Positions 40,507-41,810 of a stretch of 64,000 nt of DNA are shown one piece after another (position 1 is the first letter of the stretch; every line of letters begins with the position of its first letter). Both the position numbers and the translations under genes were made by a program. Below the pieces are notes generated by a model, which saw nothing but the letters and a program-made list of their open reading frames with translations, was not told the origin of the DNA and ran no database searches. The DNA comes from a virus (lineage: Duplodnaviria; Caudoviricetes), in the IMG/VR virus record IMGVR_UViG_2030936005_000025, positions 128,001-192,000 of that record. The stretch is one strand, 5' to 3'.

Positions 40507-40570
40507 TTCTTTTCTCCAATTAATAAGCTGATCAAAAGATAAAAACAAAAAAAATAAATGCATAAAGATC

Positions 40571-40596
40571 AGGATCTCCCAATTAAGGGAGATCCT
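40571..40596 (-). terminator. Hairpin after the small membrane peptide gene
   Basis: AGGATCTCCC-AATTAA-GGGAGATCCT with T-rich sequence downstream on the minus strand. Confidence 0.75.
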
Positions 40597-40602
40597 GTAG
40601 TC

Positions 40603-40773
40603 TTAGGCTTTGTTACGTTTGGCCATAACTGGAGCTGGAGTAAAGATAACTTTGAAAGCATCTTTGATCTGAGTGATTCCAACATAACCAATAACAACTG
40701 CGCCGATACCACCGAAGAAAGCTGCAGCGATTGCGACGTCATCAGGAGTAGTTGAGCTGAAGAAATTAAACAT
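40603..40773 (-). CDS. 56-aa single-transmembrane peptide (not in ORF track)
   Basis: MFNFFSSTTPDDVAIAAAFFGGIGAVVIGYVGITQIKDAFKVIFTPAPVMAKRNKA; GAGAGG SD; flanked by an early promoter and a hairpin. Confidence 0.75.
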   Translation of the reverse strand: MFNFFSSTTPDDVAIAAAFFGGIGAVVIGYVGITQIKDAFKVIFTPAPVMAKRNKA

Positions 40774-40817: not shown

Positions 40818-40845
40818 ATCACTTAAGTAATATAGGTCTGAAACC
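40818..40845 (-). promoter_or_regulatory. Putative early promoter (TATATTAC variant)
   Basis: CAGACCTATATTAC-TTAA-GTG. TATATTAC is the reported phiKZ early-promoter core. Confidence 0.7.
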
Positions 40846-40864
40846 AAATGCAGGTGAAATTGGG

Positions 40865-41587
40865 TCAGTCTTTTATTTGATCCCAAGTCTCAGAGCATAA
40901 GGTGATTGACTCTGGTAATTTCTTTTCGTCAAAGAGTTGCTTAATGATCGGGAAAGCAATCTCTGAGTCAGTACCGTATACCAGGGAAACGTGGAGCAAG
41001 AGGTCGTCGTAAGAATGTTTAAATCCTTCTTTGACCAGTTCTTTGTGTCGCTCAAGCACACCGCTGGATTCCAAGATCAGCGCACAAGAACGCCACTTAG
41101 AACCCGGCTTACCTAACATTTGCACACCGACTATCTGGCCTTTGTAGACCTTGTTAGATAATGATGGGACAATGTCTGGATTTCTTTCATCGTACATGAT
41201 CGTTGCATGAAGCTTGTTAACCGGGATTAAGTCAAGCTCCTCACAAACAGGCACGATTTCTTTATACAGTTTTGTACCGCTGGCTAAATCGACGTGTAAC
41301 TCAGCATAACCGTGATTCGACATAAGCTTTGGAACCTTTTTAATTTTTCCCGCACTCACAGCATAGAGGGCGGAGTCCAAACAATCTACAATATGACTTC
41401 CTATCAAATCTGTCTTATTCTTAAAGCGGTCTTTAAGAATTAAAAGAAGATGTTCCTCAGTCAAACCATTGGTAGAGAATTCGAACCTTGCCACACGGTT
41501 ATCGTCTTTATCGTAGACCTTGTATTGGTCCGGATGAGCAGACACCGTTCTGATACGACTATTTTCGTCCTGATGAATCGTCGCCAT
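40865..41587 (-). CDS. acb1: Acb1 (T4 57B)-like 2H phosphoesterase with N-terminal Tad1-like domain
   Basis: Two 2H motifs, LHATIMY and LHVSLVY, the latter preceded by GFKHSYDD. N-terminal NGLTEEHLLLILKDRF resembles the Tad1 core. Confidence 0.7.
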   Translation of the reverse strand: MATIHQDENSRIRTVSAHPDQYKVYDKDDNRVARFEFSTNGLTEEHLLLILKDRFKNKTDLIGSHIVDCLDSALYAVSAGKIKKVPKLMSNHGYAELHVDLASGTKLYKEIVPVCEELDLIPVNKLHATIMYDERNPDIVPSLSNKVYKGQIVGVQMLGKPGSKWRSCALILESSGVLERHKELVKEGFKHSYDDLLLHVSLVYGTDSEIAFPIIKQLFDEKKLPESITLCSETWDQIKD

Positions 41588-41750
41588 CTTTCTTTCCTGA
41601 ATGTTTGAGGATATAGGCGCGTTTCTCTTCGCGACTTAAACCCGGTGGAACTTCGATGTTTTCTTCGGCCAGCGCTTTATCCATACGCTTCTGATCAATT
41701 ACAACAATAGTACCTGCAACTTGAGATCGGCCTCGAATCATTCCTTTCAT
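41559..41750 (-). CDS. Small hypothetical protein (63 aa)
   Basis: GGAG SD; overlaps the acb1-like start. Confidence 0.6.
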   Translation of the reverse strand: MKGMIRGRSQVAGTIVVIDQKRMDKALAEENIEVPPGLSREEKRAYILKHSGKKDGDDSSGRK

Positions 41751-41785: not shown

Positions 41786-41810
41786 GTAACCAGGGAGAAC
41801 CCCTGGTTAC
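41786..41810 (-). terminator. Hairpin with long T-tract
   Basis: GTAACCAGGG-AGAAC-CCCTGGTTAC. Confidence 0.75.

Follow-up and report, generated by a model that had tools for sequence, protein, structure and literature searches.

An open reading frame (ORF) at positions 40865-41587 on the minus strand of a 64,000-nucleotide stretch of viral DNA, referred to here as the window, encodes a 240-amino acid (aa) protein (P0001), in which a trimmed Tad1 domain is joined to an Acb1-family 2H phosphodiesterase domain. Residues 1-83 have the Tad1 fold and are homologous to Tad1 via stand-alone intermediates, residues ~93-240 are an Acb1-family 2H phosphodiesterase, and the gene originates from two neighbouring genes; the ligand pocket of the Tad1 part has been lost, and the N-terminal domain is under selection. 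Our reading of the whole protein, to which we give a probability of about 60%, is that of an Acb1-type enzyme directed against CBASS (antiphage signalling based on cyclic oligonucleotides), with a Tad1 remnant gained by the fusion of neighbouring genes and now dimerising the enzyme or giving it a scaffold. What we infer here concerns the oligomeric state, the substrates and the advantage brought by the fusion.

The window corresponds to positions 128001-192000 of a 264-kb virus record (IMG/VR IMGVR_UViG_2030936005_000025). The genome encodes a nuclear shell protein (phrog_4795, E 9e-114), and the fusion gene is adjoined by genes for a split RNA polymerase (RNAP) beta' and an SbcD-like nuclease; hence, the virus is a nucleus-forming jumbo phage. 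Its nearest database relative is Erwinia phage AH04 (81% nucleotide identity), the orthologue of which, the product of gene 67 (AH04_67), is 86% identical to the fusion protein and is annotated as 'phosphoesterase'. The ORF consists of an ATG start, 240 codons and a stop, with AGGA located 7 nt 5' of the ATG, and the N-terminal pattern M-x-T/I-I/V-H/Y/F is kept in 16 homologues. The full-length AlphaFold2 (AF2) model, predicted as a monomer and without templates, has a mean predicted local distance difference test (pLDDT) score of 88 and a predicted template modelling score (pTM) of 0.61, with the linker disordered. The features of the gene are as follows.

40865-41587, minus strand: whole gene of the trimmed-Tad1/Acb1 fusion protein P0001, 240 aa, stop codon 40865-40867 included (ORF list and translation)
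41339-41587, minus strand: Tad1-fold core, residues 1-83, with strands 2-6, 10-15, 18-26 and 31-36 and helices 44-55 and 61-78, without pocket loops (AF2)
41312-41338, minus strand: linker, residues 84-92, flexible, in place of the Tad1 C-terminal tail, the stop codon and the acb1 start (pLDDT and alignment with phages N1M2 and OBP)
40868-41311, minus strand: Acb1-family 2H phosphodiesterase domain, residues 93-240 (Pfam PF23474, phrog_755, Foldseek)
41201-41209, minus strand: first catalytic motif, H127-A-T129, aligned with H-T-T of FBB1 Acb1 (sequence)
40985-40993, minus strand: second catalytic motif, H199-V-S201, aligned with H-I-T of FBB1 Acb1 (sequence)

Identity of the two domains

The C-terminal domain is assigned to the Acb1 family because of its Pfam score, its aligned and invariant histidine motifs and its best fold matches. 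Pfam PF23474 (Acb1), the curated gathering threshold of which is 27 bits, matches the whole protein with 41.3 bits (E 1.6e-10) and the domain alone with 42.4 bits, and the search of the whole genome with this family returned the same single match, i.e. the fusion protein, which also matches phrog_755 (E 9e-21). Residues H127, T129, H199 and S201 do not vary among 18 homologues; the second motif reads H-x-S, with serine in place of the second threonine of the catalytic tetrad of the Acb1 of Erwinia phage FBB1 (H44, T46, H113, T115). When the full-length AF2 model was compared with PDB entries by Foldseek, Acb1-type structures were retrieved with E-values from 1e-8 to 4e-6 and TMt values of 0.71-0.75, including 9Q2Y/9Q2G at E 1e-8 and 7T26/7T27 at E 9e-7, while generic 2H enzymes (plant CPDase, LigT, Usb1 and CNPase) gave E >= 2e-3 and TMt <= 0.51. 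The proposal of the initial annotation, made from the sequence of the window, that an Acb1-type 2H domain forms the C-terminal part is thus borne out by a passed Pfam cut-off, aligned motifs and a matching fold.

The catalytic tetrad, lid and substrate range of Acb1 have been described, as has its chemistry, in which 3'-5' bonds of cyclic di- and trinucleotides are cleaved without the need for a metal (PMC9117128). Residues Y94, W165, E233 and W235 of the fusion protein are invariant, F189 is nearly so, and their comparable places in the domain make them candidate counterparts of FBB1 Y12, W74, F107, W147 and E141, the HMMER alignments to 7t26 spanning only the core between the histidine motifs; the C-terminal lid of FBB1 Acb1 was taken as residues 145-152 in this comparison. 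Its family membership makes it very probable that the domain hydrolyses signals which are 3'-5'-linked cyclic di- and trinucleotides. It is most improbable that it represents a generic RNA 2',3'-cyclic phosphodiesterase or RNA-repair enzyme of the ThpR/LigT kind instead of a nuclease of immune signals. The 2H fold is common to both groups, and PHROG and GenBank labels read 'RNA ligase' or '2',3'-cyclic phosphodiesterase'; however, LigT/ThpR-type enzymes match the model only with E > 1e-2 and TMt of about 0.4, far from the values of the Acb1 structures, no RNA-ligase-type 2H family was reported in the Pfam search that placed Acb1 above its cut-off, the compact domain of ~150 aa is of typical Acb1 size, and the genetic linkage with a Tad1-type gene points to immune signalling.

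The N-terminal domain escapes the family databases. Neither this domain nor its counterparts in the fused homologues match any Pfam family at E <= 10, no PHROG match was obtained, and Pfam PF24729 (Acb2/Tad1 hairpin) has no match in the domain or in the whole genome. The stand-alone Tad1-like relatives match phrog_2428, a family of unknown function, whereas the fused domain does not, and a feature search of the ESM Atlas with residues 1-88 gave no usable match. The Tad1 origin of the domain is accepted because sequence, profile, fold and synteny agree.

On the sequence level, the strings quoted in the initial annotation, namely YKVYDKDDNRVARFEFSTNGLTEEHLLLILKDRF (residues 22-55), HIVDCLDSALYAV (65-77), GFKHSYDDLLLHVSL (188-202), HAT (127-129) and HVS (199-201), are all present, and the first 80 residues do contain a beta-hairpin-like stretch followed by NGLTEEHLLLILKDRF and HIVDCLDSALYAV. 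The fused domain is connected to Tad1 by N1M2_39, a stand-alone protein of Klebsiella phage N1M2: BLASTP links the two at 4e-6, and N1M2_39 in turn matches the solved Tad1 proteins CmTad1 (E 4.8e-7) and CbTad1 (E 1.2e-6). Distant relatives of N1M2_39 (P0048-P0056) match Tad1 at E 3e-28, and D6_0048 of Aeromonas phage D6 does so at E 3e-4. Direct profile comparisons agree with this, as hhalign of the N-terminal domain against canonical Tad1-type proteins yielded a probability of 80.6% (E 1.3e-5), and the profile of the fused N-terminal domains matched the Tad1 chains of the PDB at E 0.007.

On the structural level, the AF2 model of residues 1-92 (pLDDT 83) consists of four beta-strands and two helices. 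Foldseek hits to the PDB at ranks 1-18 are all Tad1 chains, with probabilities of 0.99-1.0 and template modelling (TM) scores of 0.60-0.67, and the probability falls to 0.41 at rank 19. A VIA-align search, which is independent of Foldseek, placed CmTad1 (Z 7.1, root-mean-square deviation 2.8 Å, 83 residues) and CbTad1 (Z 6.7, 86 residues) as the top two among 48,161 chains; these Z scores on their own are middling, and the non-Tad1 chains were aligned over roughly half of the domain or less, mostly along the helical hairpin alone. The best matches among the viral models of BFVD (TM 0.75-0.78) are N1M2_39 and a 108-aa viral protein of the same length as OBP_060. The domain shares with Tad1 the beta1-beta4 sheet, helices alpha1 and alpha2, the N-G-L/V-T helix cap and the D-R motif. 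Therefore, the Tad1-like nature of the N-terminal part, which had been suggested from sequence motifs, is upheld by transitive homology, by profile-profile comparison and by the predicted fold, for which two independent structure searches match only Tad1 over the full length; in the proposed Foldseek/AlphaFold check the N-terminal domain came closest to Tad1 and the C-terminal domain closest to Acb1. The similarity of both parts goes far past what chance would produce.

Origin and distribution of the fusion

In related nucleus-forming phages (chimalliviruses) the two modules are found in three states. The tad1-like gene is separate, full length and situated just upstream of acb1 in Klebsiella phage N1M2, Pseudomonas phage OBP, Serratia phage Yubaba, Shewanella phage SXP01 and Aeromonas phage D6; in N1M2 (gp39/gp40) and OBP (gp060/gp061) both genes lie in the same frame, with only a stop and one to three codons between them. 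Fused genes occur in eight loci, five of them metagenomic and the others those of the window, AH04 and Kc263. Acb1 is kept alone, without a tad1-like gene, in pEt-SU and in Pantoea phage Survivor. The split pairs sit where the fusion sits, between the non-virion RNAP (nvRNAP) beta' block and the SbcD-like gene, within the conserved order RNAP beta' - 220-aa protein - [tad1-like] - acb1 - ~55-aa membrane peptide - virion protein - 265-aa protein - SbcD, to which SXP01, with no small gene annotated after acb1, is an exception. Since a full-length tad1-like gene directly precedes acb1 in these relatives, the fusion gene is derived from two neighbouring genes. The junction is ~9 codons shorter than the tail, stop and spacer of N1M2, and M89 of the fusion protein corresponds to the start methionine of the stand-alone Acb1. 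A full-length tad1-like gene would thus have been joined to the downstream acb1 when the tail of Tad1, its stop codon and a short spacer were lost, presumably within a single lineage of nucleus-forming jumbo phages. That Acb1 might be translated separately, from M89, was also considered and is not favoured, as the sole Shine-Dalgarno-like sequence, AAGG, is poorly spaced at 11 nt upstream.

In the tree of the Acb1 domain all eight fused genes group together, with the split and Tad1-less forms outside, which is consistent with one fusion event. A whole-protein profile search of 1.84 billion representatives of 50%-identity clusters detected 479 relatives, only one of which (P0010) matches over both domains; hence, the architecture is limited to one narrow clade. 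Among 90% clusters, 17 proteins with the fusion were found (54-87% identity), 16 of them full length.

In databases, the stand-alone Tad1-like proteins of N1M2 (L001 2348-2773) and SXP01 (L006 1495-1818) are annotated as 'ABC transporter ATPase', a misleading name that the CbTad1 entry 7UAV bears as well, and their Acb1 genes are labelled 'RNA ligase'. The Acb1 homologues of pEt-SU and SNUABM phages are recorded as 'putative structural protein', and that of Pectobacterium phage CBB (CBB_118; L018 2501-2947) as 'structural protein'; the latter gene lies near those for a nicotinamide phosphoribosyltransferase (CBB_115) and a Sir2-like protein (CBB_120). The present assignments correct the labels 'RNA ligase', 'ABC transporter ATPase' and 'RNA 2',3'-cyclic phosphodiesterase'.

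Loss of the ligand sites and the role of the N-terminal domain

The pocket in which Tad1 binds gcADPR and cyclic dinucleotides (CDN) is built, in CbTad1, from the contacts H29, G55, R57, R78, F82, F87, N92, R109, R113, G120 and N122, which are carried by the beta2-beta3, beta4-alpha1 and alpha1-alpha2 loops and the C-terminal tail; residues 116-122 shut over the ligand as a lid. A second site, which accepts cyclic trinucleotides, is formed at the hexamer interface by R90 and T97 of CbTad1, and the hexamer itself involves M102 and W103 of CmTad1. The corresponding positions of the fused domain were read from an alignment with stand-alone and canonical Tad1-type proteins, in which H29 could not be aligned. 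The beta4-alpha1 loop is shorter by 9 residues and G55 and R57 are gone, while the alpha1-alpha2 loop is shorter by 5 residues and F87 and R90 are gone. Further contacts are substituted (F82 to K58, N92 to G63, T97 to D68, R109 to G80 and R113 to K84), and the tail and lid, including G120 and N122, are absent, their place being taken by the linker to Acb1, the pLDDT of which is below 50 at residues 84-89. In total, three of the four pocket-forming loops are lost or shortened, and a single gcADPR/CDN contact out of the 10 that could be aligned (11 in all) is kept, R78 as R54; the N-G-L-T helix cap is retained as well. The cyclic-trinucleotide site is not conserved either, R90 being deleted and T97 being replaced by D68. 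The same alignment confirms the remark of the initial annotation that the Tad1 'GPF.C.EN' loop and 'R..DR..R.V.G' tail are missing. In N1M2_39, which stands alone, N92, R109, R113 and the tail are still present; hence, trimming accompanies the fused state. The fused domain lacks the ligand-site features which define the Tad1 sponge family and retains the core fold, so that the term 'sponge' is right by history and probably no longer right in the functional sense.

The core of the domain, although stripped of its pocket, is still under selection. Pairwise Nei-Gojobori estimates of the ratio of non-synonymous to synonymous substitution rates (dN/dS) among the eight fused genes, using pairs with dS below about 1.4, are 0.09-0.27 for the N-terminal domain (residues 2-83) and 0.05-0.12 for the Acb1 domain (93-240). 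The former is thus about twice as relaxed as the latter, yet it remains under purifying selection. In addition, the domain has 14 invariant positions and the frame is intact in all 16 fused homologues; selection, invariant positions and frame together argue against a neutral relic. Such a relic would have arisen if an accidental deletion had welded a decaying tad1 gene to acb1, leaving the N-terminal part as tolerated baggage beside an Acb1 domain that alone matters. The destroyed ligand sites, the twofold faster evolution of the domain, the loss of the tad1-like gene with retention of Acb1 in Survivor and pEt-SU, and the Tad2-like gene of this genome and of 8 out of 9 relatives (see below), which could make Tad1 redundant, would all suit this scenario. 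However, dN/dS stays far under 1 in lineages that diverge to 55% identity, the fold is confidently predicted, and an 88-aa extension of no use should have disappeared or been disrupted over such divergence; hence, a functionless remnant appears quite improbable.

The initial annotation had offered two functions for the N-terminal part, the first of which, a coupling of capture and cleavage of immune second messengers, has become unlikely, because the known ligand contacts of Tad1 are almost all lost. In a broader form, the protein would be a two-pronged inhibitor, the N-terminal domain of which continues to sequester an immune signal of nucleotide type, either in a pocket that has been remodelled or at a site to which the Acb1 domain contributes; the signal may be one resistant to Acb1, e.g. 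gcADPR, 3'2'-cyclic GMP-AMP (3'2'-cGAMP) or cGG. Purifying selection on the domain would be explained in this way, Tad1 does bind signals which Acb1 leaves uncut, some fused homologues have asparagine at the position equivalent to N92, and basic residues K84 and K87 are found where R113 and the arginine of the tail sit. Moreover, sponge-sponge fusions blocking two systems have been documented (Tad2-Acb4 and Sequestin fusions; 10.1101/2025.07.12.664507), and a Tad5-Acb1 fusion occurs in metagenomes (P0103). Against this, three of four pocket loops are shortened or missing, 9 of the 10 alignable gcADPR/CDN contacts and both cyclic-trinucleotide contacts are no longer there, a disordered linker stands in place of the lid over the ligand, and a Tad2-like sponge gene is already present elsewhere in the phage genome. 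We therefore regard a retained sequestering activity as rather unlikely.

The second suggestion, a Tad1 relic used as an oligomerisation module, fares better: the relic part stands, the pocket being lost and the core kept, and oligomerisation is the part that we favour with moderate confidence. In the head-to-tail dimer of Tad1, the subunits meet at a beta4-beta4 seam and in a four-helix bundle, and in the AF2 model the elements of this dimer, the beta4 strand and the two helices, are retained in the fused domain. Because the pocket is lost, purifying selection persists and the dimer elements are kept, the Tad1 core is interpreted as a scaffold or dimerisation module and not as a gcADPR/CDN sponge. 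According to the proposed mechanism, the Acb1 domain would cut cyclic di- and trinucleotide alarm signals in the cytoplasm of the host, a place in which the phage nucleus gives no shelter from signal-activated effectors, and the Tad1 core, a beta-sheet with two long helices, would most likely serve the enzyme as a dimerising or scaffold module, or else as a stabilising or protein-binding one.

Several points weigh against this interpretation. The alignment used by AF2 held Tad1-type homologues, and the model may thus be drawn toward the Tad1 fold, even though it was built without templates. The dN/dS estimates are rough because the dS values are high (0.5-1.3), with some pairs saturated, and the base of the fused clade in the Acb1 tree is weakly supported (77/90). 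The hydrophobic M-W-M contacts of the Tad1 hexamer correspond to Y75-A76-V77 in the fused domain; since they are not conserved, the assembly may differ from that of Tad1. Finally, Acb1 is reported to be monomeric and to act on small molecules, so that the gain from dimerising it is hard to see.

Known systems and neighbouring genes

The literature search found no paper on a Tad1-Acb1 fusion or on the conserved chimallivirus tad1-acb1 pair, in line with the statement of the initial annotation that the fusion was not known to be described. The source for the 2H phosphodiesterase of Burkholderia phage BCSR5 (bioRxiv 10.1101/2025.08.21.671373), mentions viral multi-domain 2H phosphodiesterases without description and does not mention Tad1 or fusions. 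The characterised Acb1 proteins (T4 gp57B; that of FBB1, 7T26/7T27; BCSR5 2H PDE-9, 9Q2Y/9Q2G) have the compact 2H fold, a tetrad of two H-x-T/S motifs and Pfam PF23474 in common with the protein described here; however, they are single-domain proteins in which the second motif is H-x-T, while the fusion protein has H-x-S and carries an additional 88-aa Tad1-derived N-terminal domain. The Tad1 sponges (CbTad1, 7UAV/7UAW/8SMD and 8KBE-H; CmTad1, 8KBB-D; phiKZ gp184) share with it the topology, the N-G-L/V-T cap and the D-R motif, but they are free-standing, with full loops and a C-terminal lid, whereas the fused domain is linked to an enzyme, has shortened loops and lacks the lid. In the split chimallivirus pairs both modules are orthologous and occupy the same genome position; there they are two proteins, the Tad1-like one being full length, and in the window they form one chain with a trimmed Tad1 part. 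Tad2-Acb4 of Pasteurella phage Pm86, Sequestin-Tad2 and Sequestin-Acb4 (bioRxiv 10.1101/2025.07.12.664507) also combine two modules against immune signalling in one polypeptide, yet these are sponge-sponge fusions with both parts intact and shown to be active, in contrast to a sponge-derived module with a dismantled pocket attached to an enzyme. Acb1 fusions encountered in metagenomes (P0200, P0196, P0131, P0183, P0082, P0103) involve portal, MuF, DarA_N (an anti-restriction protein from inside the capsid), a GNAT acetyltransferase and Tad5, an inhibitor of Thoeris. This suggests that many phages bring Acb1 in with the virion or pair it with further modules against defence.

A complete Tad1 domain (residues ~113-226, E 1.1e-17 to the Tad1-type profile) was also noticed in the inner capsid vertex protein gp184 of phage phiKZ (PDB 8y6v chain I). 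The capsid structure paper is silent on it; nevertheless, it cannot be counted as a new find, since a preprint (10.1101/2025.11.23.690004) has named gp184 as Tad1 and called it injected and capsid-packaged.

The phage counters to CBASS and Thoeris signalling known so far are either enzymes or sponges, sponge-sponge fusions being a recent addition, and here the gene of a sponge and that of an enzyme have merged. The series of pair, fusion and loss is visible in living relatives, which lets one ask what a sponge scaffold does once ligand binding has been lost and whether an oligomerised Acb1 changes in activity or in its visibility to decoy-based systems such as Panoptes. Beside their polymerase and shell genes, chimalliviruses, the nucleus of which is no bar to alarm signals made of small molecules, maintain tad1-acb1 as a conserved module.

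The fusion gene is part of a three-gene cassette bounded by terminator-like hairpins at 41786-41810 and 40570-40597. The features around it, and one further gene of the same genome, are listed below.

41786-41810, minus strand: terminator-like hairpin which closes the upstream RNAP-beta' block and opens the cassette; the same hairpin is found in relatives (terminator scan)
41559-41750, minus strand: 63-aa ORF overlapping the start of the fusion gene by 29 nt in another frame (ORF list)
40603-40773, minus strand: gene for a 56-aa hydrophobic (membrane) peptide, the last of the cassette, with a promoter-like site at 40829-40858 and the terminator at 40570-40597
G000:C1:199504-199734, plus strand, 7.5 kb past the window end (L015 ORF 1438-1737): Tad2-like protein, 99 aa, Pfam PF11195 at 55.4 bits against a cut-off of 25

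The 63-aa ORF follows directly after the terminator hairpin and has a good GGAG ribosome-binding site. Its product matches phrog_17259 (E 1.4e-4), a family to which the N-termini of P0040 and P0042 match too, and the core of this module, V-I-D-x-x-R-M-D-x-A-L ... P-x-G-L-S-R-E-E, is homologous to the in-frame N-terminal extension of the stand-alone Tad1-like proteins P0040-P0043, which hints at a functional link between the module and the Tad1-like protein. The ORF is present, unannotated, in Kc263 and two further loci (L010, L013) and absent in AH04, L011, L012 and L014. Programmed frameshifting that would join it to the fusion gene was considered, as the +1 relation and an overlap of 23-29 nt are kept in four loci, and was rejected; since there is no conserved slippery motif and the ORF is missing in four relatives, it is read as an ordinary overlapping accessory gene. 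One can also envisage, as an unlikely arrangement, that the Tad1 core builds a Tad1-like dimer or hexamer, the remodelled interfaces of which form, alone or with the Acb1 lid, a new site for an immune signal, either for capture and cleavage or as a sponge for a signal that Acb1 cannot cut, with the 63-aa module as a third partner.

A gene of 50-58 aa occupies the same downstream position as the 56-aa peptide gene in most of the related loci read, whatever their Tad1 state, with none annotated in SXP01, and it may belong to the same anti-defence cassette. A Tad2-like gene was also found in N1M2, OBP, AH04, Yubaba, Kc263, SXP01, Survivor and pEt-SU, whereas none was found in Aeromonas phage D6. 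Redundancy with Tad2 as the cause of Tad1 trimming was rejected, the gene being present in fused, split and Tad1-less relatives alike; it may have made the loss or trimming of Tad1 affordable, and it does not explain the fusion.

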